Part shown: positions 11,748 to 64,000 of the stretch, one piece after another
Numbering within the stretch: position 1 is the stretch's first letter
Layout: every line of letters starts with the position of its first letter
Assembly (NCBI GenBank): GCA_963700285.1
Contig: CAVOXA010000014.1
Location: 640,001 to 704,000, forward strand
Source of the DNA: an uncultured Chloroflexia bacterium
GTDB lineage: Bacteria > Chloroflexota > Anaerolineae > JAAYZQ01
DNA length: 64,000 bases
Direction of reading: 5' to 3'
Made by a program: the position numbers and the translations under genes
The notes under the pieces: model-generated
The model's database searches: none
What the model saw: only the letters and a program-made list of their open reading frames with translations
What the model was told of the DNA's origin: nothing

Positions 11748-11802
11748 GCGAAAGTGTATTCATCACCGCCCGAGGAAACGGGCTCGTGCCCTTTCCATGG
11801 CC
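11748..11802 (-). pseudogene. Possible micro-relic of ybgA
   Basis: Reads KGTSPFPRAVMNT, against NDTGMFPREVMNRFP in the 61 kb copy; aligns by eye at the nucleotide level. Confidence 0.4.
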
Positions 11803-12207
11803 CACACCAGGCCGGGGCCCTCGCCCCCAAGGAGATGATAGCTGCCAACACCACGGGACTATGCGGCCTGGGGCCACGGAGGCCGGTAGGCACGATGACT
11901 GTCACCAATAAAGACCTCAAGTGGACACCCTTCCGCTGGAAACGCCCTCTTCTACCTCCAAATGAGCTCAGCCAGTGCCCGTCCCAAAGCACCTTGTACA
12001 CCGCTGACTTCTCCCAGATGTAGGATTCACATGAGTCATCAGCCCATTGGCGGTTACGGTGGGCCCCATCACCACGAACGCAATTCTCTAGAACCCGAAC
12101 ACTCGTACTTTGCAAAAGGCCATTGTGCGAGTAGACTGAACAGGTGACGATAGAGTACGTGGCAGGCAAAGCAGCCATTGCTTGAATACTCCACCAACTC
12201 CACGCAG

Positions 12208-12275
12208 AATGTCTCCTGCCAGAATTCTCTGCAGGACCGGCCGGTATTGTATCATGCCTCAGTTTCCTGAGCAAC
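12208..12275 (-). promoter_or_regulatory. Orphan promoter plus RBS, homologous to 28017-28084
   Basis: TTGCTC-N17-TACAAT, then 28 nt to AGGAGACAT; internal CTCAG-N4-CTGAG dyad. Confidence 0.6.
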
Positions 12276-12526
12276 CTCAGATTTCTGGAGGTTCATGGTA
12301 GCATACCACAGCCGGCAAGAACCGCAAAACTGCCGCGTCAGGGGCCTGGGCAGAGAAGCCCCTGCTGGCCACTGCAGGGGCTGGGTCATCGGAGAACAAA
12401 AAGGCCGTTTCTCGCCCCTTGGTGGGTGGTTCGCATCACGATTACCGGAGGCGCTCGGCTGAGAAACCGTCATATCCTCGAGCTGCTTGACGGATGAGAG
12501 TATTCGGTCAGGACAGAGGCATGGAA

Positions 12527-12564
12527 AGACCTGGTAGGCCCACCAAGAGAGACCCGCCAGGTCT
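12527..12564. repeat. REP-like inverted doublet
   Basis: AGACCTGGTAGGCCC-N8-AGACCCGCCAGGTCT. Confidence 0.55.
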
Positions 12565-12597
12565 GGATTGCCTGGGCTCGAGCCAGAAGAGGATCGG

Positions 12598-13326
12598 CTA
12601 CAAGCTACTGCCCAAAACCTTATCGCCTGTCGGACCGGGGCTGCCGCCCTCGGGTTCTATGGTAATGCCAAAGGCGGGATAGCTGGACAGAGGCTCGGGG
12701 GATGAGATCCACAAAGCCCCGTATCCTTCTGGATTGACTGAGAACACCCCCCCGCTGGTCCGTTGCCCATCGCGGATCAACCAGAACTGGTATTGATGAT
12801 CTGGGTCGAGGGCTGGCAGGCCATCTACGACCAACGTGCCGTACTCCCCATCCTCGCTAATGACCAGCGTCCCCACCGCAGCCGGCGCGACATCGGTACC
12901 GACCATAGCGACGACCTGCATACCTCCGGGGGTGACCAGCGGCCCTTCCTGGTTGGTTCGCTGCCACCACCACAGATTGCTGAGCACAAGCAGCGTGACC
13001 AGGGCCAGACTGGCCAGGCCCCAGGCAGGTCCTGCCCGCTGGAACAGGCCCGCGATATGTTGCCACCATGACTGGCGAGGTGTGGTGGTTGGCTCCCAGC
13101 GTGGCGTTTCGAGTTGCCCCAGGATCTGCTGCTTCAGGCTGTGCGGCGGCGCAGCATCAGGTGCCGCCAGGGCCAATCGATCGGAAACCGTCTGATAAGA
13201 CAGCAACTCGGCACTGCACCCCGGGCATGCGTCCAGGTGCTCGACAACCTGGATAGCCTCCTCTTCGTCGAGGCTGTCGAGGGCATAGGCCGGCAACAAC
13301 TCCATCACGTGAACATGATTCAACAT
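12598..13326 (-). CDS. Anti-sigma factor, RskA type
   Basis: LLPAYALD, HLDACPGC zinc-finger (ZAS) motif, one TM, YQFWLI and ITIEPEGGSPGPTG. Confidence 0.9.
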   Translation of the reverse strand: MLNHVHVMELLPAYALDSLDEEEAIQVVEHLDACPGCSAELLSYQTVSDRLALAAPDAAPPHSLKQQILGQLETPRWEPTTTPRQSWWQHIAGLFQRAGPAWGLASLALVTLLVLSNLWWWQRTNQEGPLVTPGGMQVVAMVGTDVAPAAVGTLVISEDGEYGTLVVDGLPALDPDHQYQFWLIRDGQRTSGGVFSVNPEGYGALWISSPEPLSSYPAFGITIEPEGGSPGPTGDKVLGSSL

Positions 13327-13366
13327 CTAGAACACCTTGGGCATTTAGACCTTTCCTACTAGATGA

Positions 13367-13391
13367 TACGCGAGGAAAGGAGTTTTGGATT
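13367..13391 (-). promoter_or_regulatory. Candidate ECF promoter upstream of the anti-sigma gene
   Basis: AATCCAAAAC-N11-CGTA, same pattern as 14638-14662. Confidence 0.75.
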
Positions 13392-13393
13392 CT

Positions 13394-14359: not shown

Positions 14360-14637
14360 TGCCATTCAGATGCACTCTTCGATCAATGCTCGTGAGACAA
14401 CAGCTGCGGTCACCGTTTGGGCAAGTATACCACTACCAGGGCAGAAGTGCAAAAGAAATCTCGTCCACACGCGATTGCGCAGCGCCAGATCCTTGGGCTA
14501 CGGATGGAGGTAGACTTGTTGGTGGACCCGATCGAGGGCCAAATAGCGGTTGTGGCAAATTCCTCTCACAAGACGGGATTCAAACGACCAAAGCCTCTCC
14601 CTATGGCACATTTTTCTAAAATAAATCACCTAAAACA

Positions 14638-14742: not shown

Positions 14743-15690
14743 ATGCTACGCAACCAAAAGCTGATCGCTGTGAGCCTGGGGCTGTTCTTGCTCCTGGCAC
14801 TCGCTCCCCTGGCAAGCGCCCAGGGGGTCACCGTCCAGGTGGCCGACCATCCAGAACTAGGCAAGATCTTGACCGATATGCAGGGCATGACCCTCTATCT
14901 TTTCACCCGGGACGGTGAAGATGTGAGCAACTGCTCCGGCCAGTGCGCCGTCAACTGGCCACCACTGTTGGTGGAGGAAGGACAGGAGCCTGCGGCCGGA
15001 CCGGGCCTGACAGGAGAGTTGGGCACCATCGAGCGTACCGATGGTGGGCGACAGGTGACCTACAAAGGTATGCCTCTCTACTACTGGTTCCAGGATAACA
15101 ATCCTGGCGATGCGACAGGACAGGACTTGGGGGATATCTGGTACGTAGTCCATCCCGACATCTCTAGCATGACGGTCGCCAGCCCTGTGGTGACGGCGAC
15201 GGAGCACCCCAGCCTGGGCACGATTTTGACCAACCAGGGCATGACCCTCTACCTCTTTACCACCGACAACGTCGACGTCAGCAATTGCTACGACCAGTGT
15301 GCTGTCAACTGGCCGCCACTGCTGGTCGGGGACGGGGCGCCTGTGGCCGGCACGGGAGTTGACGGGGAGCTGAGCATCATCGACCGGACCGACGGTGGGC
15401 GGCAGGTGGCGTACAACGGCATACCGCTTTACTTCTGGATCCGCGACGTCCGGCCGGGCGATGCGACAGGAGAGGGTGTGGGCGACGTATGGTTTGTCCT
15501 GAACTCCGAGACGACCGCTGACGCACTGACAGGGTCCACTGCCCAGACACAGCCGGAAGCACAGGCGCCGTCCGAGACGCTGCCACAGACGGGCGGAGCC
15601 ATGCCCTCCTGGGCGATGCTGCTGGTCATTGGTGGCGCGGCGCTTCTCGCTATGGGAGTGGGCCTCACGCTGGCGCAGAAGGCGCGCTAG
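14743..15690 (+). CDS. Secreted repeat protein (COG4315/Lipoprotein_15-like) with LPxTG sorting signal
   Basis: Signal peptide, two GMTLYLFT..C..C..NWPP..QV.Y.G.PLY.W..D domains, LPQTGG + TM + basic tail. Confidence 0.88.
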   Translation: MLRNQKLIAVSLGLFLLLALAPLASAQGVTVQVADHPELGKILTDMQGMTLYLFTRDGEDVSNCSGQCAVNWPPLLVEEGQEPAAGPGLTGELGTIERTDGGRQVTYKGMPLYYWFQDNNPGDATGQDLGDIWYVVHPDISSMTVASPVVTATEHPSLGTILTNQGMTLYLFTTDNVDVSNCYDQCAVNWPPLLVGDGAPVAGTGVDGELSIIDRTDGGRQVAYNGIPLYFWIRDVRPGDATGEGVGDVWFVLNSETTADALTGSTAQTQPEAQAPSETLPQTGGAMPSWAMLLVIGGAALLAMGVGLTLAQKAR

Positions 15691-16045: not shown

Positions 16046-16401
16046 TTGCACGTGATCGCGCGGTTGCCCATGACCTTCAAGCCCTCCATGTGCATGGCCC
16101 CATGCCCGGCCATCAATTTGTCCCAGTTCCGCTTGCCCCCGCCTGCGACGAGGCGGCCCATCTCGGCGTAACGATTGGGACAATGGGCCATCAGCGTCAA
16201 CTTGTGGGCGGCATGGAAACGCACCAAAGAACCGGTAGTCCTTGCTGGACTGCCGGTCCTATAGTCCTTCAGCATCTCGGTCCAGCGATAGTGGGCGAAG
16301 ATGCACTCGACAGAATTCTCGCGCGGGGGCATGTCGTTGAGCCGGGTCTCCTCTTCCGGCGGCAGCAGCGGGAACCGGTTTATGACCTCACGGGGGAACA
16401 T
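16046..16401 (-). pseudogene. ybgA: ybgA (DUF1722) internal fragment
   Basis: MFPREVINRFPLLP..FHAAHKLTLMAH..EGLKVMG; collinear with the 61 kb and 63-64 kb copies. Confidence 0.9.
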
Positions 16402-16404
16402 CAT

Positions 16405-16720
16405 CCTCCGGTGCGACCATCAGCAGCGTATGCGTCCTGACAAAGGGCGCGCAGAGCGTCGGCCGGAACGGCTCCGGCGTTGCCGGAAGCACCCGCGTGA
16501 CACTGTTGTTCCATCCGGTGCCTGCACGACCCCCATAGTCAATGAACTAACGGAACGCCTGGATGGGCTTGAGAAGCGACGGCGTACCGGCTTGGTCGGA
16601 GGAGACAACCCGTGGTTCGCCCTCGCTCCATCCAGAGTTCCTGTGGTCGTAGAGCAGGACCGCCAGGCCGGCACGGGAAAACGCCTTCGCATACTTGTCC
16701 ACCATCATGTACACCGTGGC
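16405..16720 (-). pseudogene. Alpha/beta hydrolase relic (internally deleted, with stop codon)
   Basis: MVDKYAKAFSRAGLAVLLYDHRNSGWSEGEPR..FR*FIDYGGR..LLMVAPEDD joined directly to the ybgA fragment. Confidence 0.65.
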
Positions 16721-16780
16721 TTGGGCACTGATTCTTTAACGCGAACAATAGGGCAAAGGGATGTGGGCGGCCAATACTCC

Positions 16781-17167
16781 CTATTTCTTCTTCTGTTTTG
16801 CCTCTGCCCGATCCAGGTTTTCCCTTACCCGAAACTCCACGATTCTGCTTATCAGGTCGAAAGGAATGGGATCACCGAATGAAAACCTCACCGTGCCCTT
16901 TGATCCGGAGTACGCGGACAGCTCATCCTTGAACTTGGCAATTCCTGTCGGCCCAGGATAGAACCCGATATGTTTTTTGAAAGCGGCAAAATGAACCAGA
17001 TTCCCCTTCAGAGCAAAAGTCGGCATCTGATAGCTGATTCTCTCTTCAGCGTCTGGTGCGGCTTTTCCAATGGTCATCCGTATCTTTTCCAGAATCTCTT
17101 GAACATCCTGTGGAAAGCCTGCGATGTATTCATCTATATTCTTGGGTGCTGGGTGCTCAGTTCTCAT
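16781..17167 (-). CDS. DUF1801/YdhG-like protein
   Basis: IDEYIAGF, EERISYQMPTF, FAAFKKHIGFYP, KGTVRF. Confidence 0.88.
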   Translation of the reverse strand: MRTEHPAPKNIDEYIAGFPQDVQEILEKIRMTIGKAAPDAEERISYQMPTFALKGNLVHFAAFKKHIGFYPGPTGIAKFKDELSAYSGSKGTVRFSFGDPIPFDLISRIVEFRVRENLDRAEAKQKKK

Positions 17168-17184
17168 AGCGCCCCCTTTAAGAA

Positions 17185-18414
17185 CTACTTCGCTAACACC
17201 TTCCCCAGTGCGGGGAAAGCCGCCATCATACTGTAGAATTCATTTCCGGCCGGTGTGGGAGTGGGATACGAACTGAACTTGGCGATCACGAGTTGCGCGG
17301 CTGGATCGATGTAAAGCATCTGTCCGCCGTAGCCCAATCCTTGGTAGGCACCGTGTTCGTTGTGTGTCATCCACCATTGGTGGTGATAGGAATAACCCTG
17401 ATTCATGGGGCTTGCCGCCGGCCCGCGCGCAAAAGCGTCCTGGTCGCCCCCCTTTTCGATATCTTTGACTACTGCGGCAGGGACAATTTGCTGCCCATTG
17501 AACTGCCCTTTTTGCAACAGCATCTGCCCAAAACGAGCCATATCCCGCAAGGTAGTGAGCAAACCGGACCCCGATGTCTCGGCGGCCGCCGAATCGACAA
17601 TCCAAAAAGCGTCCCGCTCGGCTCCCAACTTGGACCAGACGCGCTCGTGCATGATCTCGGCCAGCGATTGATTTAGCAGGCGCTTCATGATCCAGGCGAG
17701 TACGTCGGTATTCGGTGTGAGGTAGGCGAAACGCCAGCCGTGTTCGCCCACCTTTTTCATGGTCGGCAGAAATTCGTACACGGATGCCGGGCCAGCATAG
17801 CCTGCGGGCTTTTCTCTCCAACCCAACGCCATCGCATAGGTCAAATTCTCTGACACTGGATCAACCTGGTCGTCACAGAACCATACTGCAGTGGTCATGT
17901 CCATCACCTGGCGGATGGTGGCATCGGCAAAGCCGCTATCCTTTAGCTCTGGCAGATAGGTAGCGACCACGGCCTCGGGATCCAACATGCCTTCGTGTGC
18001 CAACAGCGCGGCAAGCGTGCCGGTCATCGACTTGCTGGATGAGGCCCAGGCGTGGAGGGTATGCGCCTGCATCCCATTCAAGTAATTTTCATAGATAATC
18101 TTTCCCTCGTGCAGAACCACGATGCCGTCGGTGTAACTAAGCTCGACCATATCCCCAAAAGTGAATTGCGTGCCCGCTCGGTTGTGGTAGGTGACCTGAT
18201 CCATGTCAAACGGGGCATAGTCCAGTTGGGCAACCGGCCCATTGCCGCGCCATACATCCACTGTGCGGTTCAGCTTTAACTCGTTCTGGAAACTCCAGCG
18301 ATTATAGGGGCCATAGAGCTGATTTTCGTGAGTGACAAGCTGCTCAGGCAATGGCGGAAATCCGCTCATCAACCCCAATTCGAATGCACTCTGCGGTTTT
18401 TGTTGGTCAAGCAC
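17185..18414 (-). CDS. Serine hydrolase, beta-lactamase class C/NylB-like
   Basis: SSSKS (SxxK), FAYLTPNTD, GYGGQ; start GTG 18414 after GGAGG. Confidence 0.88.
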   Translation of the reverse strand: MLDQQKPQSAFELGLMSGFPPLPEQLVTHENQLYGPYNRWSFQNELKLNRTVDVWRGNGPVAQLDYAPFDMDQVTYHNRAGTQFTFGDMVELSYTDGIVVLHEGKIIYENYLNGMQAHTLHAWASSSKSMTGTLAALLAHEGMLDPEAVVATYLPELKDSGFADATIRQVMDMTTAVWFCDDQVDPVSENLTYAMALGWREKPAGYAGPASVYEFLPTMKKVGEHGWRFAYLTPNTDVLAWIMKRLLNQSLAEIMHERVWSKLGAERDAFWIVDSAAAETSGSGLLTTLRDMARFGQMLLQKGQFNGQQIVPAAVVKDIEKGGDQDAFARGPAASPMNQGYSYHHQWWMTHNEHGAYQGLGYGGQMLYIDPAAQLVIAKFSSYPTPTPAGNEFYSMMAAFPALGKVLAK

Positions 18415-18448
18415 GATATCCTCCGGGACGATGCATCCCTCTACCAGA

Positions 18449-20317
18449 TCAATACGACAATCCAAAACCAAATGGATAAAGCGGTTGCTCTGAATCGTAT
18501 GGGACGTCCGGTTTTTGGTTTCGAACAGCATCCATCGAGGATGGGAGTTCAAATGGCAATTTGCCTCGCGGATTGGCTTTGCCAAAGATCACATCCAATA
18601 CTGCTTCGTCACTGGCACCGAATTCGCCCAACAGCCCCTTGGCAGCGGCGTTGATTTCGGGAATTACCGCAGGCCGGTCCAGGTACAGTACCACGATGGT
18701 AGGGACTGCTCGCAGCAAGGCCAATATTTCGGCCTTGGCCTCCCCTTTGAAATCCAGGTCGCCGTGATGAAACCCACGCGCAAATGGATTTTTCGTCTCC
18801 ACCGGGTACCATGGGGTGTTCAAGCGTAGAATAGCGAGGTTGGCATCTGCGGGTGTTGTCACTACCTGCCCATACTGTGCCGCTACTGCGGCATCGATGT
18901 TTTCGACGTATATTTTCGGCTGGGCCTGCAATGGCAGAATGCTGTTCTCGTTTTTGAGCAGGGTCACTGCCTGTCTTTGCGAGGCGGCCCCTGCTTTCAC
19001 GAAATCAGGACGTCCCAGCACTTGTGGAACCTTGTCCGTGTCTACGAAGGGATTGTCAAAAAGCCCCAACTGGAATTTCTGGCGTAGCAGCCGCCGTATT
19101 GATTGGTCAATACGCTCGTTGGATATCTGTCCGTTTCGCATCAATTCCAGTACCAACTCGGGGCGACTTTCTCCGCCAAATTGATCCACGCCCGCATCAA
19201 GCACCTTTTGCACCCGCGCCACCTCGCTAAGGTGTTCCACGCCCCAAGCTCGCGCCGGCCAGATAGAGCCGGCCACGTCCGAATCTGTGATCAGCCCCCA
19301 GTCTGTACAAACCACGCCATCGTAGCGATATTTCTCGCGCAGCAGGCCTGTGATTATCGCTTTGTTGAACGACATCGCGACGTTTTCATCCGTTTGGTCT
19401 ATCGGGATGCCATAGTAGGGCATGATGGCGGCGGTCTGCGCGGCGAATGCAGCTTCAAAGGGAATTAGGTGATAGTACAAGTTGTTGCCGGGGTAGATCT
19501 GGCCTTTCTGAAACTCAAAGTGCGGATCCAACCCTTCATTCTGTGGGCCGCCACCGGGAAAGTGCTTGGTCATGCAGGCAACACTGTCCGGGCCAAGGCG
19601 TTCACCTTGGAAACCGCGGATATAGGCCTTGGTTAAAAGCGCTGCCAACTGGGCATCCTCCCCAAACGTCCCGTTGATGCGCGGCCAGCGCGGTTCGGTC
19701 GCGAGGTCAACCTGCGGGTGGAGTGCCACCCGAATCCCCACTGCCAGATATTCTTGCCGGACAATCTCGGCAAATTGTCTGACGAGATCAGGATCACCGA
19801 TAGCACCAAAGCCTAACGTTTCGCACCACTGTGAAAAATCGTTGGCGGCCATAGCAAAAATGTTCGGGCTGAAGTGGTTGCGTGGATCGGATGCGATCGT
19901 GACAGGAATGCCCAGCCGGGTCTGTTCAGCAAACCGTTGCAGATTGTTGTACCAAATGGCGACCACCTGCGGAGCCGGGATCGCCCATAGATTAAAGTGA
20001 TTCATTTTCTGGTCTGTCATTTGGGTGCTGGCTACTCCACCAGGCCCCGGCGGGCCCGGATCGTCTTCGATGGAACCATCGGTGTTGATGACCGACCCGT
20101 TGAAGAACAACATACCCGCTTTTTCTGCCGGCGTCATCTGACGCAACAGGTCTTCCACGCGTGCTTCGATGGGTTGCCGCGTATCCTCGAAAATGTCCAA
20201 TTTGCCGTTCTTGTTCAGGTCGCGGTATCCGAAGCCGTCGTCCGTTCTGACCAAATCAGATTGCTGCAGCACCAGCTTGTCAAGACTGTCTGTCGTTTCA
20301 GGTTGGATGGGTCCCAT
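18449..20317 (-). CDS. Glycoside hydrolase family 3 (beta-glucosidase)
   Basis: TRLGIP..SDPR, PRWPRINGTFGED, KHFPG, VCTDW, GKLPFELP, YPFGFGLSY. Confidence 0.93.
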   Translation of the reverse strand: MGPIQPETTDSLDKLVLQQSDLVRTDDGFGYRDLNKNGKLDIFEDTRQPIEARVEDLLRQMTPAEKAGMLFFNGSVINTDGSIEDDPGPPGPGGVASTQMTDQKMNHFNLWAIPAPQVVAIWYNNLQRFAEQTRLGIPVTIASDPRNHFSPNIFAMAANDFSQWCETLGFGAIGDPDLVRQFAEIVRQEYLAVGIRVALHPQVDLATEPRWPRINGTFGEDAQLAALLTKAYIRGFQGERLGPDSVACMTKHFPGGGPQNEGLDPHFEFQKGQIYPGNNLYYHLIPFEAAFAAQTAAIMPYYGIPIDQTDENVAMSFNKAIITGLLREKYRYDGVVCTDWGLITDSDVAGSIWPARAWGVEHLSEVARVQKVLDAGVDQFGGESRPELVLELMRNGQISNERIDQSIRRLLRQKFQLGLFDNPFVDTDKVPQVLGRPDFVKAGAASQRQAVTLLKNENSILPLQAQPKIYVENIDAAVAAQYGQVVTTPADANLAILRLNTPWYPVETKNPFARGFHHGDLDFKGEAKAEILALLRAVPTIVVLYLDRPAVIPEINAAAKGLLGEFGASDEAVLDVIFGKANPRGKLPFELPSSMDAVRNQKPDVPYDSEQPLYPFGFGLSY

Positions 20318-20383
20318 TGTGTATTCCCCTATGAAGGAGTCATGTTTGAGAAGGAAGTAGGAGCAGATGGTTTCTGCATTGGC

Positions 20384-20412
20384 ATTCTATCACCACCTCG
20401 CCCTTTGAGCAA
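20384..20412 (-). promoter_or_regulatory. Promoter of the GH3 block, related to the 12.2 kb and 28.05 kb elements
   Basis: TTGCTC-N18-TAGAAT with extended -10 TG. Confidence 0.5.
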
Positions 20413-20538
20413 ACTGTCAAGGCCACGTCAAAACTCGCCCGTACGAACGAAGGGGGGCACAATCCGGCACTCTTCCATCTTTGTAGCCCGTCAACCGACC
20501 CACACGTTCGATGCCCCTTTGGAAGGCGTGCATACCGC

Positions 20539-20604
20539 CTACACATGATTCCGCAGCATGAACTCAATGGGGTAGGGAGGCAGGTGCACTTGCTGGTGTA
20601 CCCA
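20539..20604 (-). pseudogene. ybgA: ybgA 3'-terminal relic (21 codons plus stop)
   Basis: WVHQQVHLPPYPIEFMLRNHV* against WVHQQVYLNPYPKELMLRNHV*. Confidence 0.88.
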
Positions 20605-20623
20605 CGCAGAGAAAACTGTCTCT

Positions 20624-21851: not shown

Positions 21852-21878
21852 GATGCACCTCGGTATGCCTGTCGTGAT

Positions 21879-23042: not shown

Positions 23043-23086
23043 CTCGTCACCTCCTCTTTGCTGTGCTTTCTCGTCGTCGCTCGGAC

Positions 23087-24248: not shown

Positions 24249-24292
24249 CTTGTCACCTGCCCCTTGCTGTGCTTTCTCGTCGTCGCTGTGGC

Positions 24293-50680: not shown

Positions 50681-50719
50681 GATACTTTCCTCCTGGAGAA
50701 TCAACGACTCCACGACCGT

Positions 50720-51544: not shown

Positions 51545-51548
51545 CGTA

Positions 51549-52001: not shown

Positions 52002-52023
52002 GTCTTGATCCTCCAAAATCGGG

Positions 52024-52699: not shown

Positions 52700-52849
52700 T
52701 CCTCCGCCACTCCATGTCTAGCTGTGAACGCAGTATACCTCAAGAATCACGCATCACCAAGAATGCTGGCGCATTTGTGTATCAACCAGCAACGTGGGCG
52801 AGTATGCAACTTGGATTGCGCACCTTTCTACCTGTAACAGTGTTTCTAT

Positions 52850-53694: not shown

Positions 53695-53751
53695 CGGCGA
53701 ACCGACCTGAGCCTGGGCCGGCTGGTCCAGGCGTCACATACCCCTGTCCAG

Positions 53752-53925
53752 TCAGACAGCGGCCGGATCGGAGACATCGGCCTCAAACAGGTCGGATGTC
53801 CACTCGGCGAGTTGGCTCGTGTGGCGGCCCATGGCCAGAACGCGCCAACCCCCATCACTCAATTGGGCAACCAGCGCCCGGCCAATGCCGCCGCCTGCGC
53901 CCCAGATCATCGCCTTTTTTGCCAC
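53752..53925 (-). pseudogene. SDR oxidoreductase N-terminal stub
   Basis: MAKKAMIWGAGGGIGRALV..FEADVSDPAAV*. Confidence 0.75.
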
Positions 53926-54021
53926 GATTCCTCTCCTTGCTCTCGCACTTTTCGGTTTACGGAAGGACCCGAGACGTTTTCGTTGAACAAGGACCCTGTC
54001 TGGTCTGCTGACTCCTGGGCA

Positions 54022-55473
54022 CTAGGGCTTGACCGGTTCCCGAACGTTGCCAAATGACTCGATGGCTCGATCCCGCGCCCAGCCGTGATCCAGGATTGGG
54101 GCTGGATAGTCCAGGCCAATGGCACAAACTGACTCGCGTTGGACATCCGGGGGCATGGTCCATGGCTCGTGAATGTAGCCGACGGGCACGTCGGCCATTT
54201 CCGGTAGCCAACGGCGCACGAACGCGCCATTCGGATCGTACTTGCGGCCCTGCAAGACCGCGTTCAGGATACCGAGATCGGGAGCCGCACCTGTACAGGT
54301 GCCAGCCGCCCGCTGCCAACCGTCGTTGTACACCCGCAGGTCGCCTTCTAGGAGGTGCTGCATGAAGAACCGCTCGCCCCACCGCCAGTCAATCAGCAGG
54401 TCCTTCGCCAGGTTAGAGGCCGGGACCAGGCGTGTCCGGTTGTGGAGCCAACCGGTCTGGGCTAGTTGGCGCATTGCCGCGTCTGCGTGCGGATACCCGG
54501 TGCAACCCTGGCGCCAGGCATCGAAAGCCGCCTGCTAGTTCTCCCAGGGCGTGTGTCGAAATTCGGGGCGGAAGCCCTGCCTCAGAGCCTGGGGAAAATG
54601 AATCTGGATCGAGACGGCGAACTCGCGCCGGATCCGAGCGTCTAGCCACAGCACGGCACCGTGCCGCGCCTCAGAATCCGGGGCGGCATCCATGGCACTG
54701 AGCGCGCTCAGAACGGCCTGGCGAGCGGAGAGCATCCCAAACCTCAGGTATGGGGACAGCCGGGACGTGCCCCCACATCCAGACGGTCACGTAGCTCGTC
54801 ATAGCGGTAGATCGGAGCTGCGCTGGCCGGATGATGGGTCTCACCGCGCCAGTCCACAAAAGCTTGCAGCCGCCGTTGCGCCTCCGCTTCACCCGGCTGG
54901 AAGGGCACGAGAGAAGAGAGCGCAGGATCCCTCGGAATTGGAAAGCTGCCAACATCGGGCAGTGGAGATAGTTGCGTCGGAGGCCGGAGCACGTCGCGCA
55001 CAGGCGGCAGCGTCAGCGCTTTCCATGCCTTGCTAAAGGGGGTGAAGACGGTGCAGGGCTGGCCATCGTCCTGTCGCAGGGCAGCCGGCGAGTGCACAGT
55101 CAGGCCAGCGCTCAAGTACAGGGGCAGGGCTTCGGCAACGCCCACGTCCCGCTCTTGTGCGTAGGAAGAGAAATCCTCCTCAGCAAATATCGCGCTTGCC
55201 CCTGTCCCGCTCATAAGCGCACTCAACTCCGTTCTTGGTTCGCCGCGACGGATAATATGCCGACTGCCTCGAGCACTCGATTCATCGTCCAACCTGCGCA
55301 GACCTGCCAGCAAGAATGCAAGGTGTTTTTCGCTCGAATCGGGTGAGGCCAAGACTTCCCTATCAAGTAAATAAACTGGCACTCTGCGACCTGCATGAGC
55401 CAGCGCAGACGCGAGGGCCTGATCGTCACTCAGGCGCAGATCGACGTACCCACCAAAGTGCAGTCATCGTCAT
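54022..55473 (-). pseudogene. phrB: Second photolyase, decayed
   Basis: In-frame TAG at 54535-54537, frameshifts, eroded FAD motifs (WLHNRTRLVPASNL, PDLGILNA). Confidence 0.85.
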
Positions 55474-55507
55474 GGTACAATCCAGCCTTCTAGGGTCGGA
55501 AGAAAGA

Positions 55508-55618
55508 TCACTCCCGATGGTCCTTTCCGCGGAGTTCAGAAATCGCAGCGATGGTCAGTGGTCCTAGCGTAGCGAGAGTGGCCAACAGACCCAACACAAA
55601 GATAAAGGCATCGCTCAT
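55508..55618 (-). CDS. 36-aa single-TM small protein
   Basis: GGAGG RBS; ATGA overlap with the upstream ORF; MSDAFIFVLGLLATLATLGPL.. Confidence 0.6.
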   Translation of the reverse strand: MSDAFIFVLGLLATLATLGPLTIAAISELRGKDHRE

Positions 55619-55794
55619 TCCTGCCTCCTCCATGCCAGTACAAAGGCGCCGAAGGAAAGGATGGAGGGAACCCAAATGCCCACAAAGATGGCTTGCTCCT
55701 TTGAGCCAGCGAACCACAGGAATGTCGACAGCAAGAAAGACATACCGGCCGCCAACAGAATGCTATATCGGCTAATTCGCCACCAGTTGTTCAT
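55615..55794 (-). CDS. 59-aa two-TM small protein (absent from the ORF track)
   Basis: MNNWWRISRYSILLAAGMSFLLSTFLWFAGSKEQAIFVGIWVPSILSFGAFVLAWRRQE*, first ORF after a strong promoter. Confidence 0.7.
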   Translation of the reverse strand: MNNWWRISRYSILLAAGMSFLLSTFLWFAGSKEQAIFVGIWVPSILSFGAFVLAWRRQE

Positions 55795-55931
55795 TACCTT
55801 CTACTCCTTTTGCTTTTTTGACCATCACCAGCAGTGTTGCTTGCCCTGCTGATTGCGGTGACCTTCGTTCCCATTCGACGTTTATGCCTGATCACTCTTA
55901 TCCACCGATAGCCTTATTCTTATACCTTGAC

Positions 55932-56016
55932 ATGATACCATACCACCGTGGTTTTGTCAAGAATTTGAAATGAATTTCGCGTTAAGAACGCGTACAAACT
56001 TGACAAAAACTGTGCA
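55932..56016. promoter_or_regulatory. Divergent promoter region with TnnACA-like repeats
   Basis: Minus strand TTGACA-N17-TATCAT; plus strand CGTACA..TTGACA-N5-TGTGCA. Confidence 0.6.
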
Positions 56017-56059
56017 CTTTCGTGCGCTATCCCTTAGTCCATCCTCAACGAAACGGTTC

Positions 56060-56420
56060 GTACAGATTGCACTTGGCGCAAGGCTGTTCGGTCATGACGG
56101 CAGCAGAATACGAGTCGATGATCCAGGAACTGCTCACCCACGCAAACGAAGAGATGGGGCATGCTTGTGTCCTGTCCGACCAAATCGATTTCCTGGGAGG
56201 ATTCCGGGTGGTGGACGTGGAGGAGATCAAGACCTCGGGCGACAACACAGAGATGCTCGAGCAGGATCTGTCAGGCGAGTTCCAGGCCATTCCCGCTACT
56301 TAGGAGCGGATCCCTGAGGCCGAGTCACTTCAGGAGTATGGACTCAGGCGTACCCTGGAGGACATTCTGATTGTCGAGGAGGAACACGCCTGGGACCTAC
56401 TGACCGCTCTGGGCCGCTAA
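56060..56420 (+). pseudogene. Ferritin/bacterioferritin-like protein, decayed
   Basis: HANEEMGHA..QIDFLGG..EQDLSGE..T*ERI..LEDILIVEEEH; stop at 56301-56303, 5' end lost. Confidence 0.8.
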
Positions 56421-56585
56421 GTGAGCAACAGAAACCGAATCCACAGTGGGCTGATTCGATCCCAACCCCAGACTTGCCTGATCCAGCATGCCAGGCAGAT
56501 CACGGCGAGCAAAGAGGGGGCGGTAGAAGAAAAAGAGGTGAGCCCGCCGGGAAGCAGGATCACCTCTTGCAAAGAAGGAGAAGCT

Positions 56586-57398
56586 CTAGTCCTCGATATT
56601 GATCTCGGACCTGCGAGTCCGAAGGACGAAGCCACCGGCGATCAAGGCCAGGCCCGCGCCCAGGACAAGCAGCAACCAAGAGTTTGTGGTCTGGCCGCCC
56701 GTCGTCGGCAAACTGGCAGGCGTGGCCACGTCGTGGCTGGCATCAACGCTGGGCACCGCCGTCAGGGCAGGCTCACCGCTGGCCAGGCCCATGGCAAAGA
56801 TGGTGTACACCGTTCCGTCCTCAAGTGTCACCCCGGGCACGCTCAAGGCCACTGCATCCGTACCAGCGAGACGCGCTTCCAGGTCATAGGTGCCGGCATC
56901 GACGGGTAAATAGTCACCCACTCCCTTGAACGCTACATCTGAGAAGAGTACGGGACCACCGTTCGCCACCGCGATGTCAACGGCCGGGGCATCGGGTGAA
57001 GCGTGCACAAAGCGTACGTGGGCCTTGCCGACGGCGGGGGCACTGTTGTTGTCTATCAGGACCAAGGGCTCGATGTTCTCCAGCGTGCCGACAGCAACGA
57101 CCGTGTAATCGGTCTGCGTCGCTAGGTCGAGATTGGCATCAATGACGATAGGCTCTGTGGCGCCGGTTGGGGACACCTGGACATTATAGGAGCCGGGCTC
57201 GAGCACGGCATAGTCGGTGATCCCTTTGAAAGGCGCATTGCTGAATGCTACGGCGCCGTTGACCCAGACGTCAACTGCCGGAGCATCGGGTGAGGCGTGC
57301 ACGACACGCACACGAGCTTCGTGACCATCAGCAAAAGCACTAGTGGCCAGGACCAGACTGAGAACCAGAACAGCAGAGACTACGAATAGACGTTTCAT
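56586..57398 (-). CDS. DUF4397 secreted protein with LPxTG sorting signal
   Basis: Signal peptide, VHASPDAPAVD twice, LPTTGG + TM + RTRR. Confidence 0.9.
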   Translation of the reverse strand: MKRLFVVSAVLVLSLVLATSAFADGHEARVRVVHASPDAPAVDVWVNGAVAFSNAPFKGITDYAVLEPGSYNVQVSPTGATEPIVIDANLDLATQTDYTVVAVGTLENIEPLVLIDNNSAPAVGKAHVRFVHASPDAPAVDIAVANGGPVLFSDVAFKGVGDYLPVDAGTYDLEARLAGTDAVALSVPGVTLEDGTVYTIFAMGLASGEPALTAVPSVDASHDVATPASLPTTGGQTTNSWLLLVLGAGLALIAGGFVLRTRRSEINIED

Positions 57399-57444
57399 TT
57401 TTTTCCTCCATGCTACCTGTGATTTGATGAACTACCATATGAGG

Positions 57445-57505
57445 AGTATAGCACAGAAATCTTTTTTTGTCAAGTCTTTGTCCATATTCTTTACGGATTT
57501 CTAAT
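57445..57505 (-). promoter_or_regulatory. Sigma70 promoter with candidate CarH/LitR-like direct repeats
   Basis: TTGACA-N17-TATACT; TGGACA-N5-TTGACA; ATTAGAAAT upstream. Confidence 0.7.
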
Positions 57506-57607
57506 GCCGCCCCTCCTGTGTCTGGTTGATTCAGACAGAAAGTGATTTTCTATCTCTGAACCATTCGCTGCGATGTTGGGCTGAGGGTTCGCGGGCCGGC
57601 CAGATCA

Positions 57608-57645
57608 ACTACCCCCTGGCTGACGTGCTGCAACCAGGGGATAGT
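57608..57645. terminator. Hairpin downstream of the iorB-like gene
   Basis: ACTACCCCCTGGCTG..CAACCAGGGGATAGT. Confidence 0.4.
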
Positions 57646-57681
57646 ATGCTGCGGAGCAGGGCTGGGTCAGATGGCCATCGT

Positions 57682-59945
57682 CTAGGATTCCAGGGCGGCC
57701 TTGACGCGCTCCGGCGTCATAGGCAGGCGCCGCAACCGGACACCCGTCAGAGCAAAGAGAGCATTGCCGATGGCAGGGGCAATCGGGCCGATGGGTGGCT
57801 CGCCCAGGCCGCGCGGTCTGCCATCGGGCGCTTCGAGCAGGATCGTCTCTACCTCCGGCGCCTCGGCCATTCTGATCAACGGATAGCGGTCAAAGTTACC
57901 GGCCTGCACGCGGCCATTCTTGACCGTGATCTCTTCCATGAGCGCGGCGCTGGTGCCCATCACAATGCAGCTCTCGATCTGGGCCCTGGCCCCGTCGGGG
58001 TTGATGGTCCGGCCAGCATCCACCGCGGCCACCACCCGGTGAACCTGGATCCGACCACTATCTCGGTCCAGCGAGATCTGAGCAACTTCGACGACCACGG
58101 TCCCGCCGTCGCTACTGCAGGCGATGCCCTGTACTCGACCCTGAGGTTGGGGCTTCTCCCCAACGGGCTCGCGCCGCCGCCGCTTCCAGGACGGCGCCGC
58201 ATGCGCCGTCCAAGAGCATCGTCGAGGCAGGTGAGCCAGGCGAAAAGCAGAGGATCGACGCCTGCCGCGAAAGCAAGTTCGTCGACAAAGCTCTCGATGG
58301 CGAAAGATATTGGCCATCAGGCCCAGGCCACGCCACGAACCGGTGGGGATCGGCATGGGCGTCTCCAGACCGTGGTATCCCGGTTGGCGATGTCATAGAG
58401 GATTTGGCGCGCCACGGGTCGAGCCAAAGTCAAAGCCCAGGATCTTGCCAACAGGGGCGGGAAAGGCGCCAAACAGCGCGTCGCCACTGGCCTGCTCGTG
58501 GCATAGGCTTCGATCTCGCCCCTGGTCGTCCAGGATCGCGCTCAGTCGGTGATGGGTGAGCGGGCGCACAAAGCCATCGCGCATTTCTTCGAAACGGTCC
58601 CAGCCGACGTGGACCGGCGCGCCCACGGCCCTAGACAGCCGGGCCGCTTCCACGGCAGCACTGGGTACCGGATCGAGCTCGATCTTGCGCCCAAAGCCGC
58701 CACCCAGATAGGTGGGAATGATCTCGACCTGCTCTGGTTCCAGGTCAAGGGCCGCAGCCACCTCCCTCCGGACGCTCATCTCGAACTGGGTGGAGGTCCA
58801 TACCTTGCCCCCGTCCGGGCCGACGATGGCCAGAGCGGCCTGGGGCTCCATGGGAGCATGGGTGGCCATTCCACTGCGATACTCGGCCGTTATGGCGATG
58901 CCCCTTGCTTGAGGAGCGAGGAGACATCACCCTACCGTCTGGATGTTCACACCGCCGCGGCCTCCGACGGTGACCAACTCCTCCAGCTCCTGCCTGCTGC
59001 CAACAGGTAGCCTTCATCCCATTCCACTTCCAGGGCATTACGGGCCGCCCAGGCCTCGAGACGCGACTTGGCCACCACGCCGGCAAAGCCATCCTCGATC
59101 ACCACCTTGACCACACCAGGCATGCTCTCTGCCTCGCCCGGTCCCGCAGAACAGCATCTTGGCCTCTATCGTCGGCCGGTGCACAGCCGCTCCATAGAGC
59201 ATGCCTTCGGCACGAGCGTCGTAGCCAAAGATGGCCTCACCGGTGACCTTGGCGGGCAGATCGACGCGGGGCAGCGATTGGCCTATGAACTTGTACTCAC
59301 TCGCTGGCTTGAGCGGGACCTCGTTCTTCCGGTATCTTCCATGCTACCTCGCGCTGGCCACCAAATCTCCGTAGCTGACCCTGGTTTCAGGATCTGTCCG
59401 CCAGCTCAAAGCCGCCATCGCGGGCGACCAGGGCCTCGGCGGGCTGGTTCAGCACACTGGCCGCCTCGGCGCGCAGCGTCTCTCGCAGGGTCGCCGCGGC
59501 CTGGCGCAGAGGATCGTAGAGGGTGGTCACCGACATGCTGCCGCTGGTGCCCCGAAAGCTGTCGTCGGCCTGGCTGGTGCTGGCATGCTGCACCTCCAGC
59601 TTGTTCCCAGGCGACTTCCAGTTCTTCGGCAGCGATCTGCGCCAGGGCGGTGTGGATCCCCTGGCCCATCTCCGCCTTGGGTACGAATACGAGGACGCGC
59701 CCGTCGGGGTAGACTTCGAACCAGAGCAGGGGATCGAGCGTGCCGCTGGCAAAGCCGCCAGCATCTCCTTCGGTCAGCCCTGCCGCTGCTCGGCGGAGGG
59801 GCGGCAGGCCCAGCGGGATGCCCAGGGCAAGGGCGGCGCCAGTCGCCGCCATACCTATCAAGAACCCGCGCCGGCTGATGTACCATTTGCGCTCGGCATC
59901 GTTCGGGAACCTGGCCGTTCTGCTGTTGCTCGCCGATTCGCTCAC
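57682..59945 (-). CDS. Molybdopterin oxidoreductase large subunit (isoquinoline 1-oxidoreductase beta-like; many frameshifts)
   Basis: SRRGFL Tat-like motif, [32 protein letters not shown]. Confidence 0.85.
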
Positions 59946-60433
59946 GCCGCACCTCCACCCGAGGCCGGTCCTGGGGCACTGGCCATCTCTGCGGCTGCGC
60001 GGTCAACCGCCCGCTTGATACGTCCGTAGGCGCCACAACGACAATAGTTGGCGCTCATGCCAGCGATGATCTCTTCTTCTGTGGGGTTCGGATTCTCTTC
60101 AAGCAGAGCAACCGCCCTCATCATCTGGCCGCTCATGCACCAGCCGCACTGGTGCACCTGCTCGTCCAGGAAGGCCTGCTGCACTGGATGCAGCACCCCC
60201 TCGCTGGCCAGCCCTTCGATGGTGCGGATGGCCTTGCCCTTGGCAGCCGACAGCGAAGTGATGCACGAGCGCGTAACGTTGCCGTCCAGGTGGACCTCGC
60301 AGGAGCCACAGATCCCCACGCCGCAACCGAACTTGGTGCCGGTCAGTCCCAATTCGTCGCGCAAGACCCAGAGCAGGGGGCGGTCTGGCTCATCTGCCAT
60401 TTCATATGTTTTTCCATTAACCACGATTTCCAT
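59942..60433 (-). CDS. (2Fe-2S)-binding small subunit (IorA/CoxS-like)
   Basis: [27 protein letters not shown]. Confidence 0.93.
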
Positions 60434-60496
60434 GCAATGCTCTCCTCACAAGCCTTGACGCTCATCAAGTGTGAAAGGTTGGGTGTCCGAATGGCC

Positions 60497-60628
60497 TCAT
60501 AGCATGCCCAGGATCATAGCGATGCCGACACCTAGCAGCAAGCCCGCGAATGTGCCAACCAATGCGCCAAGTGCTATACCGAGACCCCAACCCACGGCAG
60601 TCTGCAGACACCCTCTGGTTCTTCTCAT
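60497..60628 (-). CDS. 43-aa glycine-zipper membrane peptide
   Basis: GAAGGAG RBS; GWGLGIALGALVGTFAGLLLGVG. Confidence 0.55.
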   Translation of the reverse strand: MRRTRGCLQTAVGWGLGIALGALVGTFAGLLLGVGIAMILGML

Positions 60629-60657
60629 GGCACTCTCTCCTTCACTCGCCAGCCGGT

Positions 60658-61308
60658 CTACACGTGATTCCGCAGCATCAATTCCTTGGGATAGGGATTG
60701 AGATACACCTGCTGGTGCACCCACTCCGGCACCGGGTAGCGGTTCAGGTGGTGCTTGAGCAGCGTCAAGGGCACGATCAGCGGCAGCAGCCCCGAACGGT
60801 AGTCCTCGATCAGATCGAGCAGCCCCTGCTTATCCTCACTTGAGAGGTGGTTCTTCAGGTAGCCCATCAGGTGCTGGAGTACATTCACATGCTTGCCCCG
60901 CGTGTCCATCACGCTTAGGCCTTCCATGAGCATGGGCACCATACTCGGCCTCAGTTCCTCCCATGTCTCGCTTGCCCGCATCGGCGACGAGGCGGCCCAT
61001 CTCGGTGTAGTGCTTGGGGCTGTGGGCCATGAGCGTGAGTTTGGGGGCGGTGTGGAAATGACCAAAGGATCGGCAGTCCTGTGGTTCCTTGTCCAGCATC
61101 TCTGTCCAGCGGTAGTAGGCAAAGACCCGCTCAATGAAAGTTCTCGCGGAGGGGCATGTCGTTGAGCCGGCCCTCTTCCTCCAGAGGCAGCAGCGGGAAA
61201 GCGATTCATGACCTCGCGGGGGAACATGCCGGTGTCGTTTTTCTGGGCCATTCCGTGCTTGTTGTAGACCTTGACGCGGAATAGACCCGACGAGGGGGAG
61301 TCCTTTTT
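60658..61308 (-). pseudogene. ybgA: ybgA 3' two-thirds (starts abruptly at KKDSPSSG; frameshifts)
   Basis: KKDSPSSGLFRVKVY..FPREVMNRFP..NVLQHLMGYLK..YLNPYPKELMLRNHV*. Confidence 0.9.
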
Positions 61309-61470
61309 ATTGGAAGAGACTCAATCGACAGAAAGGGACCGTTGCTCAGCAGGCGTTTGGTTGTCAATCCGACGTGACTGGTCATACTCGTCTCGCGACT
61401 CATAGCCATCAGGTCTAGTGTGCTGCCACACCGACCTCTCTGTACCAAAAACTAGCGTCCATGAAGGGAA

Positions 61471-62113
61471 TCAGTGTCTCTTGGTCAGCCGAAAAAACCG
61501 TCGAATGAGACCGGGAAACAGCTTTCGGCGCAATCGCTTGGTAAAGGGATGAGCCGAGTCGATCTGGTCCAGCATATCGTAGCATTTCTCGGCCATCTCG
61601 CGTCGTCCGGTCTCAAAGAGATAAACGCCAAGAAGACCCATAAATCCCATTACTTCCGAAACGTGGAACTTTTTGCGCTTGGGATAGAGCAGCTTCAGAT
61701 CGAACTTGTGATCAACAATCTCTGCGATCCGATCGTAGTCACGCCGGGTAAGGCACAGCTCGCCGTAGTTTATGCGCGCAAACAAGTAATCGGGTCCGCC
61801 GGAAATTCTCCTCAATCGCCGCTTCGGCTTTGTCACGGTGCCCCGACAACGAATAGGCAGCGCTCAGATAGTTGTCAAACACTGGCACATTCGGATAGCG
61901 TTCTTTCCAATCGAGCAGCTCCGCTATCGCCTCAGAAGACCTCGTTTGAGACAAGTCGTGAAGCCGATTGATTGCTTCTTTGACCTCCGGGGGCAGCCGT
62001 TTGTACTCCCGATCGAGGATCGGCGCATCCGTGATTTCGTAAGTGACAACCTGCACTGTTTGCGAGCTGGGGAACTTACGAGCGGCCTGTTTCCGTCGTC
62101 TCTTTTTCGTCAT
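61471..62113 (-). CDS. TPR-like helical repeat protein (frameshift near 61800)
   Basis: YPNVPVFDNYLSAAY, PDYLFARINYG. Confidence 0.7.
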
Positions 62114-62203
62114 ATCTGTCTGGCCGAATGCATACCCAAACCACTTTTCACGCCTGGCCACAGTGGAATCGCCCCAGTATCTGCGCCCACTCGCGGTCTC
62201 GCT

Positions 62204-62632
62204 CTACTGCAGATACATCTCACCCGATACCTCCAGGGCGTCCTCTGGCAGGCCGTAAAACTCGCCTGTCGGAAACATGGACAACTCGTAGTGCTCGCTC
62301 GCGTAGCTATAGAACCCAAACCCCCACCGCTCCTCATTGCCAAAATATCGCAAGCGGCACAGAGGAGTCGGCGTGCTGCGCAGTCTCTGCAGGTACTCCT
62401 CCCGGCTCTCTGGCCAATCCGCAGGCGGCCAATCTGGGCTTTGCGGCTCTGGCTCTGTGTAGGCATCCACGTAACAGAATTGACCACGAAAGCGAATCTC
62501 CAAGCGAGTGTAGCGTCCGGCAAACCGCTCCTCGGCAAAGCGGCGCAATCGATTTTCTGTGCGCCGGCGCACGGCATCTGGAATCTTGACGCCGCCACTG
62601 TCCGGGTCGTGCACCCATTGCTTCTTAGCCAT
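62204..62632 (-). CDS. Conserved hypothetical protein
   Basis: Clean 142-aa ORF: IRFRGQFCYVD..LCRLRYFG..WGFGFYSYASEHYE. Confidence 0.7.
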   Translation of the reverse strand: MAKKQWVHDPDSGGVKIPDAVRRRTENRLRRFAEERFAGRYTRLEIRFRGQFCYVDAYTEPEPQSPDWPPADWPESREEYLQRLRSTPTPLCRLRYFGNEERWGFGFYSYASEHYELSMFPTGEFYGLPEDALEVSGEMYLQ

Positions 62633-62644
62633 TTCGTAGCATCC

Positions 62645-62911
62645 CTACGATTCCTCTGCCTCGATTGCCTGCCAGAACTCATCGTGGCGAACGCCGCCTG
62701 TTTCCCGAATCTGCGCCCGTCCTGCTTCCAATATGCTCATAAACTTGGGGGTGTAGGCCAGGACCAAGCGCTCCAGCTCTTCCTCATCCTCGATCGACAG
62801 CAGAACCGCTACCGGCTTGCCGTGACGAGTCACAACGACGGGTCCTTCTGTAGACGATCTCAAATATGCACTGAACTGCGCCTTTATCTCTGCCACTGGT
62901 GCTATCTTCAT
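62645..62911 (-). CDS. Phd/YefM family antitoxin
   Basis: AEIKAQFSAYL..PVVVTRHGKPVAVL. Confidence 0.9.
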   Translation of the reverse strand: MKIAPVAEIKAQFSAYLRSSTEGPVVVTRHGKPVAVLLSIEDEEELERLVLAYTPKFMSILEAGRAQIRETGGVRHDEFWQAIEAEES

Positions 62912-63231
62912 GACTCAACCTCCTCTCCGGCAATCGTCAACCGATCTCGAACCCTCACCCCTATCACCAGTATGTAGACAGCTCCGGCGTCCCGATCAAC
63001 TTCGTAGAACACTCGGAACCGGTTGTTCGGCCCGAAGCGAAGCTCCCACTCTGCCTCAAAAGCCACCGCGCGCTTCAGCGGCTTGCGATTTCTCGTCTCC
63101 ACCTCGGGCTCGAACTGCAACTGCACCTCTATCTCCCGGCGAATCAGCCCATAATACTTGCGCTCGATCGCCTTCAGATGCTCCTTGACTTGCGGTGCGT
63201 ACACCAGTTCAAAGACCCGTTTCGAGTTCAT
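62908..63231 (-). CDS. RelE/ParE family toxin
   Basis: WELRFG..FRVFYEV..VYILVIG; ATGA coupling to the antitoxin. Confidence 0.88.
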   Translation of the reverse strand: MNSKRVFELVYAPQVKEHLKAIERKYYGLIRREIEVQLQFEPEVETRNRKPLKRAVAFEAEWELRFGPNNRFRVFYEVDRDAGAVYILVIGVRVRDRLTIAGEEVES

Positions 63232-63241
63232 TATGACCAGA

Positions 63242-63269
63242 ATTATAGTCAGAAATCAGGATCTGTCAA
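63242..63269 (-). promoter_or_regulatory. TA promoter, near-leaderless
   Basis: TTGACA-N16-TATAAT ending 10 nt before the toxin ATG. Confidence 0.75.
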
Positions 63270-63380
63270 GTTTTGGTTTCCAGAACGATTTTGTGCTTGT
63301 CGCAGCGGACGTCGCGCTGTTTGGGACTATCAGTTTCTTCGGGTATAGAATTCCGTAGAGATGTGAAGCAGAGACAAGTC

Positions 63381-64000
63381 CTATACATGATTGCGCAGCA
63401 TGAGCTCCTTGGGATACGGATGCAGGTAGACCTGCTGGTGCACCCAGTCGGGAACCGGATGCCGGTTCAGATGATGTTTGAGCAGCGTCAGCGGCACGAT
63501 CAGTGGTACCATGCCCTGCCGGTAGTCCTCGATGAGGCCCAGGAGCTCCAACGTACCGAAGGTACGCCTTGCCCTCACTCGAGAGGCCCTTCTTGAGGTA
63601 GCCCATCAGGTGCTGCAGCACGTTCACATGCTTGCCCCGTGTGCCCATAACAGCGAGGCCCAGCATGAGTTGGGCGCCGTACTCGGCTGTCAGTTCCTCC
63701 CAGTCACACCTGCCGGCGTCGGCGACGAGGCGGCCAATCTCGGTGTAATGCTTGGGGCTGTGAGCCATGAGCGTGAGTTTGTGAGCGGTGTGGAAACGCA
63801 CCAAAGGACCGGCAGTCCTTGAAGGACTGCCGGTCCTGCTATTCTCCAGCATCTCCGCCCAGCGGTAGTAGGCAAAGACCCGCTCGATAAAGTTCTCCCG
63901 CAGCGGCATGTCATTGAGCCGGCCCTCCTCCTTCAATGGCAGCAGCGGGAAGCGCTTCATGATCTCACGGGGGAACATGCCCGTGCCGTTGCGCTCTGCC
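63381..64000 (-). CDS. ybgA: ybgA (DUF523/DUF1722) 3' part, runs off the right edge; frameshift near 63560
   Basis: EEGRLNDMPLRENFIERVFAY, FHTAHKL, NVLQHLMGY, YLHPYPKELMLRNHV*. Confidence 0.9.
63805..63837. repeat. 33-bp palindrome (16-1-16) inside ybgA
   Basis: AGGACCGGCAGTCCTT-G-AAGGACTGCCGGTCCT; degenerate copy at 16228-16260, half copy at 61066-61080. Confidence 0.92.

Follow-up and report, generated by a model that had tools for sequence, protein, structure and literature searches.

Serial rudS relics behind a candidate large serine recombinase half-site in cassette arrays of sediment Anaerolineae

Accretion-mobilisation has been described for cis-mobilisable elements (CIMEs) and for tandem islands in streptococci (PMC7563491, PMC5704250). 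The 64,000-nt stretch of DNA analysed here, referred to as the window, belongs to the 7.05-Mb genome of an uncultured Chloroflexia bacterium (G000; the window is G000:C14:640001-704000) and carries serial fragments of one gene, rudS, with accessory cargo between them. CIMEs are, like the units proposed here, integrase-less cargo units with att bounds that are stacked at one target gene and moved in cis by a helper; in both, the most decayed units lie farthest from the target and gene-less micro-units occur. CIMEs differ in forming composite islands at gene 3' ends, leaving the gene whole, whereas the rudS arrays would have a target in mid-gene, depend on a large serine recombinase (LSR) and carry 645 bp of the target gene in each unit, and only the helper's departure would make that gene whole. 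Staphylococcal cassette chromosomes (SCC, SCCmec) and Enterococcus cassette chromosomes (ECC) at rlmH share with the arrays an LSR, att sites of about 50 bp with dyad symmetry, variable cargo, recombinase-less remnants and an RNA-modification gene as the target, but use the 3' end of rlmH and hold their ccr genes inside the elements (PMC6222049); the rudS units are mostly 0.3-6 kb and contain no recombinase, and their att site and the 3' end of the LSR itself overlap. Insertion of LSR elements inside a coding sequence is known for rumA-type integrative and mobilisable elements (PMC5704250) and for comM-type targets (PMC10083194), for which the accessible parts of these sources describe no array of cassettes in which the 3' half is replaced time after time. 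Integrons resemble the arrays in having one entry site, an inferred newest cassette at the head and accessory cargo of one or a few genes (toxin-antitoxin, GNAT, hydrolases, methyltransferases); in the rudS array, by contrast, there is no IntI and no attC between units, and the units are bounded by a double-stranded LSR-type site together with two-thirds of a gene. No report of rudS, ybgA, DUF523 or DUF1722 as an integration site was found in the literature searched; subscription papers lay outside that search, as did the full LSR database and the TIGER/Islander tables, which may list it. In the portions of PMC10083194 covered, namely the main text (for 'ybgA' only) and 8 supplements, none of these names was found.

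The original prediction, made from the sequence of the window, had described six relics of ybgA (DUF523/DUF1722) as an anchor at which new DNA was repeatedly added. The relics are real, and a domain scan identified the gene as a fusion of PF04463 (TudS) and PF08349 (DUF1722), that is, RudS rather than a stand-alone ybgA, E. coli YbgA being DUF1722 alone (PMC11417400). RudS is a tRNA 4-thiouridine desulfidase with three conserved Fe-S cysteines (PMC11417400). At the third cysteine position, inferred from spacing, Ser was found (Ser107 of P0001) in 9/9 of the full-length family rudS genes from which a 945-nt nucleotide profile was built. On these residues the anchor RudS would depart from the three-cysteine pattern, and its desulfidase function is putative. 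The profile gave 13 matches in the whole G000 genome (eight at C14:654-704 kb, four at C14:146.9-151.7 kb and one elsewhere). The 12 strong matches were confined to the two C14 clusters, the 13th reaching only E=0.21, so that the relics were, as had been proposed, concentrated rather than scattered genome-wide. Within the window, seven minus-strand fragments were found at E<=6e-13 (63999-63381; 61309-60658; 28494-28271 and 28267-28184; 20609-20539; 16414-16050; 14551-14466), and these belong to the first six of the following features.

63381..64000, minus strand: rudS 3' two-thirds relic, model nt 299-945, frameshifted, probably of attR type.
60658..61309, minus strand: rudS relic, model nt 300-945, frameshifted, probably of attR type; orthologue at G001:C19:5648-6297.
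28184..28604, minus strand: apparent dead anchor, an N-terminal stub of a major facilitator superfamily (MFS) gene followed by rudS model nt 90-314, a deletion, and nt 860-945.
20539..20609, minus strand: rudS 3'-end relic, model nt 875-945.
16050..16414, minus strand: rudS middle relic, model nt 368-716, joined to a hydrolase remnant.
14466..14593, minus strand: relic with a decayed arm (14593-14569, 19/25 match), then rudS nt 300-314, a deletion and the rudS 3' end.
11758..11807, minus strand: possible rudS remnant, not above chance.

Five of the six predicted relics were thus confirmed by the profile, and one at 14551-14466 had been missed. The sixth, a candidate at 11748-11802, had E=0.077 window-wide, weaker than a likely chance match at 36848 (E=0.041), and was not confirmed; the backbone shared with G001 restarts immediately to its left (~11700). 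The copy at the right edge had been taken for near intact. It is instead a frameshifted 3' two-thirds that begins 61 nt outside the window (C14:704061) at model nt 299, preceded by an att arm at C14:704061-704085; beyond it lies a further 3' relic (C14:704293-704152), and no intact rudS was found upstream. Two relics had also been read as fused to truncated cargo. This holds for the hydrolase remnant at 16.4 kb, a homologue of which lies near the head of the G001 array, whereas the MFS stub at 28491 resembles the gene that natively lies 5' of rudS at C14:153564, and the 28.2-28.6 kb piece is therefore a second, dead anchor rather than a displaced 3' end. It also retains the host (B) arm and core; the relic at 14.5 kb has the identical deletion junction. 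The window is thus not one simple array: from its layout it reads as the tail of a rudS array, complicated by this second anchor at 28.3 kb and by a light-stress block that ends in its own MFS-rudS. A distance of 552 kb separates the window from the intact-type MFS-rudS anchor of G000, which is frameshifted near codon 85 and has three further relics beside it, whereas in G001 the MFS-rudS head directly adjoins the array; rearrangement or misassembly may account for this distance. The predicted leftward decay holds roughly but not strictly; the G001 relic at 44035, for instance, is longer than that at 41972.

The same architecture with different cargo, and with cassettes at different positions, was observed in relatives, which bears out the idea of gene-anchored accretion. 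A RudS match was present in 20/23 family genomes (an order-level search gave the identical 23), and tandem rudS fragments were present in 11/23 (G000, G001, G005, G006, G007, G013, G014, G016, G019, G021 and G022); four family genomes had one close full-length rudS only. Among 401 class genomes, scored for at most five candidates each, 63 gave a match, and outside the family more than one fragment was found only in G374, which held an array, and in G302, which held one relic. The usual layout is a full rudS with cargo and relics downstream, the intervals between relics being 292-6,325 nt (n=54, a count that omits very short intervals and eight hand-joined regions). The cargo across arrays is accessory and comprises toxin-antitoxin pairs, hydrolases, methyltransferases, GNATs, secreted proteins and insertion sequence (IS) transposases. 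Identical leaders or cassettes follow intact rudS in some loci and relics in others, and given cassettes occupy different array positions in different genomes. Empty units of ~90 bp, from a rudS stop to the next arm, were seen in several genomes (C14:704151-704062; L086, L129, L138, L165) and are comparable to microCIMEs. Viral contigs gave no rudS match and one weak LSR match.

The original prediction had also stated that breakpoints were variable and that no recombinase was visible. In the largest class of relics, however, the start is fixed and is preceded by a half-site of LSR att type. Among 117 internal fragment starts in 131 loci, 44 lay at model nt 290-309 (codon ~100), nine at 225-289, 62 downstream and two upstream. 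A 25-bp non-rudS arm was present at >=16/25, that is, at least 16 matching positions, in 49/56 distinct junction flanks; pairwise identity of the flanks was 0.62-0.80 within the arm and 0.26-0.42 past it, and 51 junctions split into 26 upstream groups. In 4/4 other metagenome runs the arm was found as loose ends at the same base, and the fixed junction is therefore no artefact of the G000 assembly. One deletion junction, 15 bp past the core, recurs at eight places in five loci, six times after the P arm and twice after the host arm; if this shared deletion has a single origin, the crossover fell within about 15 bp, at the core. The arm is very probably an LSR half-site, and the arm-bearing, fixed-start relics are likely to be the attR scars of an LSR. 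For relics with variable starts, the homology-facilitated recombination suggested in the original prediction is plausible. A breakpoint at nt 315 was also considered as an att site and rejected, being the shared deletion, and the arm was rejected as the stump of a co-directional LSR gene on finding no LSR-like coding upstream (mean score -42, where the family scores +32). The arm of the window is as follows.

61310..61334, minus strand: 25-bp non-rudS arm, very probably the P half-site of an LSR att site.

A separate observation concerns the palindromic centre of the att junction, inside which an element with terminal inverted repeats was found at L123:~2030-2190, L117:~8126-9576 and G019:C246:~122. 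It has a DDE_5 transposase in L117 and a 6-bp target duplication in L123, and appears to be an IS that targets the junction centre.

A counterpart to these relics was found in G014, where contig C37 carries rudS nt 2-306 abutting, in convergent orientation, the 3' end of a 534-aa LSR gene (PF00239, PF07508 and PF13408) whose stop codon falls within the rudS half. LSR att sites have dyad symmetry and span ~50 bp (PMC6222049), and the crossover spans 2 bp (PMC5704250). The 25 bp past the G014 junction gave a 15/25 mirror match to the relic arm, centred on the first two bases of the Lys101 codon (P0001). Five other centres gave 5-10, host arms gave 5-10 and the shuffle p was 0.0016; within the locus, 15/25 was reached by 4/24,240 windows and exceeded by none. 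On the strength of this one example, the junction can be read as an attL, with mirror arms in the geometry of LSR attP arms. As indirect support, the same stop position with Ser-Ser is found in the G014 LSR and 3/4 of its closest homologues, against 6/120 overall, and 9/9 listed members of one LSR cluster stop at that place. G014 (4.7 Mb) contains nine matches to the same LSR clade, at different sites, and LSR genes of this clade end within the att site, so that their C-termini differ from target to target.

The arrays themselves yielded no recombinase. The original prediction had suggested looking past the right edge; no tyrosine recombinase, LSR or IntI was found on C14, and none in the cargo, either among 149 representatives of 299 open reading frames (the set on which the cargo scan was based), in a set of 81 frames or by tblastn. 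Integrase and transfer genes were absent from the cargo in these scans, although no separate relaxase search was made. A resident integrase was rejected, as G000 holds only C-terminal LSR fragments, and no intact LSR of the G014 clade was found in G000, G001, G007 or G022.

A mechanism that uses standard LSR reactions only, every step of it inferred, would account for this combination. An LSR element would integrate at attB within rudS (Lys101 codon of P0001), splitting the gene, and excision between attL and a distal attR would take up a [rudS 3' part - cargo - arm] unit. After transfer, the loaded element would integrate into rudS of a new host, where excision at the proximal attR would remove the helper and restore a full rudS with the donor 3' allele; the same excision would leave the cassette at the array head and displace the old 3' part downstream. 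Later deletions and RecA-type exchange between the 645-bp repeats would then erode and reshuffle older units. An intact gene followed by serial attR sites without attL follows from standard LSR reactions if the helper excises distally and then proximally. That the stack behind rudS grows in this way, by a visiting LSR element that shuttles cassettes in and then leaves, is in our estimate slightly better than an even chance. In agreement with such importation, 21/22 within-array copy pairs had only 77-87% identity, on which local tandem duplication was rejected, and in a tree of 80 rows (four near-duplicates dropped) relics and intact rudS genes interleave (17 label changes, 10 forced, 26.9 in shuffles). 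Because of this divergence and this interleaving with intact genes, the array copies are regarded as imported alleles, not local duplicates.

Several observations weigh against the shuttle. A single attL junction was found, that of G014:C37, and the rudS 5' halves of G004 and G114, considered as further attL, were rejected as contig ends. No attL loose ends occurred among the rows listed for four other metagenome runs, and no rudS 5' half lay beside an LSR at the other LSR-neighbourhood loci checked (mostly 1.5-kb flanks only). G014:C37 stops 140 bp short of the LSR start and C30 starts within rudS, and the element body and attR are not in the assembly; nor was a helper with a relic inside it observed. 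The arm motif occurs in the LSR clade generally, two LSR 3' ends without an adjoining rudS match giving a better score, at 18/25. Nor does the shuttle explain how, for each upstream type, an initial [3' part - cargo - arm] unit came about.

Further points on the same side bear on a different account, in which the arms are fossil LSR insertions and RecA-dependent unequal exchange, taking place during transformation, is the chief source of array growth, with the 645-bp repeats as homology arms and one-sided joins both making the variable-start relics and repairing LSR-split genes. The youngest pair, L064, is identical over nt 465-883 (419 bp) and divergent on either side, and G021 has a 65-bp identical tract; relics make up 24/26 rows of one supported clade; in a set of 19 intact genes, linkage to the 5' part declines by degrees beyond the core and does not break there, a signal that is weak and confounded by kinship; for pairs that share their upstream the outcome was mixed, some having a different inner-arm subtype; and the 62/117 starts downstream of nt 310 fit one-sided joins. 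ComEC is present in G000, and the lack of an intact clade LSR in the four genomes searched would also be expected. Homologous recombination between the 645-bp rudS repeats clearly acts in the arrays, and may even be the main driver. Growth mainly by this route is nevertheless thought rather unlikely, since the sharp conservation edge at -25 and the 26 upstream groups would call for many LSR events, each cleanly losing attL, and, as the deleted mini-head follows host arms as well as P arms, a crossover would have had no more than about 15 bp to fall in.

A third account dispenses with integration of a helper: non-autonomous circles [arm - rudS 3' part - cargo] would be moved by an LSR acting in trans, much like integron cassettes, through a non-canonical attB x attR reaction. 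It predicts the identical end structure, and the empty ~90-bp units and the common promoter-bearing leaders that recur in many loci would suit it. Recombination between attB and attR lies outside the general rule for phage LSR reactions. Phage LSRs are directional (PMC2475636), and G000 has no intact LSR of the clade. No circle was seen either, although suitable reads were lacking for that search. This account is considered improbable.

It is very improbable, finally, that the array is an integron or a cluster of attC sites lacking integron-integrases (CALIN), or an assembly chimera of several strains. A heuristic search, which misses degenerate sites and used what we take to be the attC core pattern, gave three attC-like candidates in 135,060 nt of cargo, and two more were seen by eye in G001; attC was found in 1/58 junction flanks, however, no IntI exceeded the cut-off in G000, and IntI occurred in only 4/23 family genomes, so that the integron was rejected on both IntI and attC. 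One arm group in G001 is closely preceded by attC-like sites (C19:~5480-5560, ~43900-43990 and ~43170-43230), and this genome encodes an IntI at C19:585 kb; the position of the sites suggests that integron cassettes were captured into some rudS units. A chimera might be suspected from the 6.5% contamination of G000, from the anchor that lies far off in G000 and adjoins in G001, and from the sequencing runs, each of which contained at most 0.17 of the words in window 56000-64000 and none of which spanned the window junctions. Against this, the same relics and blocks in the same order are present in the independently assembled G001, and dozens of contigs, as well as the four other runs, show the junction again.

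The cargo of the window consists of the following blocks.

61335..63380, minus strand: cassette with promoter match, ParE-like toxin, Phd antitoxin, hypothetical gene and split TPR-like gene.
28620..60657, minus strand: 32-kb light/oxidative-stress block with iorAB-like genes, DUF4397, photolyases, Mrp antiporter, Usp and DUF2867.
20610..28183, minus strand: cargo with common promoter-bearing leader, beta-propeller gene, three APH-like kinase paralogues and split MFS gene.
16415..20538, minus strand: cargo with GH3, PF00144 hydrolase, DUF1801 and hydrolase remnant.
14743..15690, plus strand: cargo, a secreted Lipoprotein_15 repeat gene on the opposite strand.

The first cassette has a sigma-70-type promoter match (12/12) at 63269-63242, a ParE-like toxin at 63231-62908 and a Phd antitoxin at 62911-62645; its split TPR-like gene had no Pfam match. 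In G005, a ParE gene and a similar antitoxin stand immediately behind intact rudS. Promoter-bearing leaders lie right after the rudS stop, before different cargo genes, at 28183-28050 and 63269-63242; of the recurring leaders, one is present in 16 copies and another in six, and they resemble integron Pc. The 61.3-kb relic, the 32-kb block, the 28.3-kb deleted copy and the GH3 cassette (GH3 being 91% identical) are common to G000 and G001, and the intervening cargo differs. The 32-kb block, not a typical small cassette, is mostly common to both genomes and ends in its own MFS-rudS. Photolyase, iorAB-like and DUF4397 genes, several of the genes being frameshifted, occur in a minimum of three light-stress clusters of partial redundancy on C14 of G000 (709-755 kb, 152-162 kb and, in the window, 28.6-60.6 kb). 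Three tandem APH-like kinases with ~1,205-bp spacing and a beta-propeller with 132-bp repeats were noted at 21879-25465 and 25842-27839, respectively. Behind the 14.5-kb relic, at 14365-14050, lies a broken gene pair that by eye we take to be HicA/HicB-like; its leader also follows a relic in L143.

Returning to the shuttle by a visiting LSR element, the rudS units would work like CIMEs but depart from a definition that asks for flanking attL and attR, since an intact, attB-like gene stands on one side of them and relics of attR type on the other; no attL was seen within the arrays, in which only two 5' fragment ends lie near 315 (the shared deletion). If the shuttle is correct, cassette arrays could be built without a resident integrase or attC, and integron and island finders would be likely to miss them or to log them as pseudogene debris. 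Accretion-mobilisation would extend from gene ends to an LSR target that splits its gene, with gene repair amounting to cargo capture, and the part of RudS that bears DUF1722 is predicted to be exchanged constantly between lineages. The analysis also provides a candidate LSR for which attB and the two attP arms are defined. A broader possibility, held tentatively and at somewhat less than even odds, is that a hit-and-run LSR runs an integron-like system without staying, rudS being a self-renewing landing pad at which the need for a whole gene selects the excision that leaves a cassette. With the same reserve, each drop-off may swap in a new rudS 3' two-thirds, across the whole family of sediment Anaerolineae.

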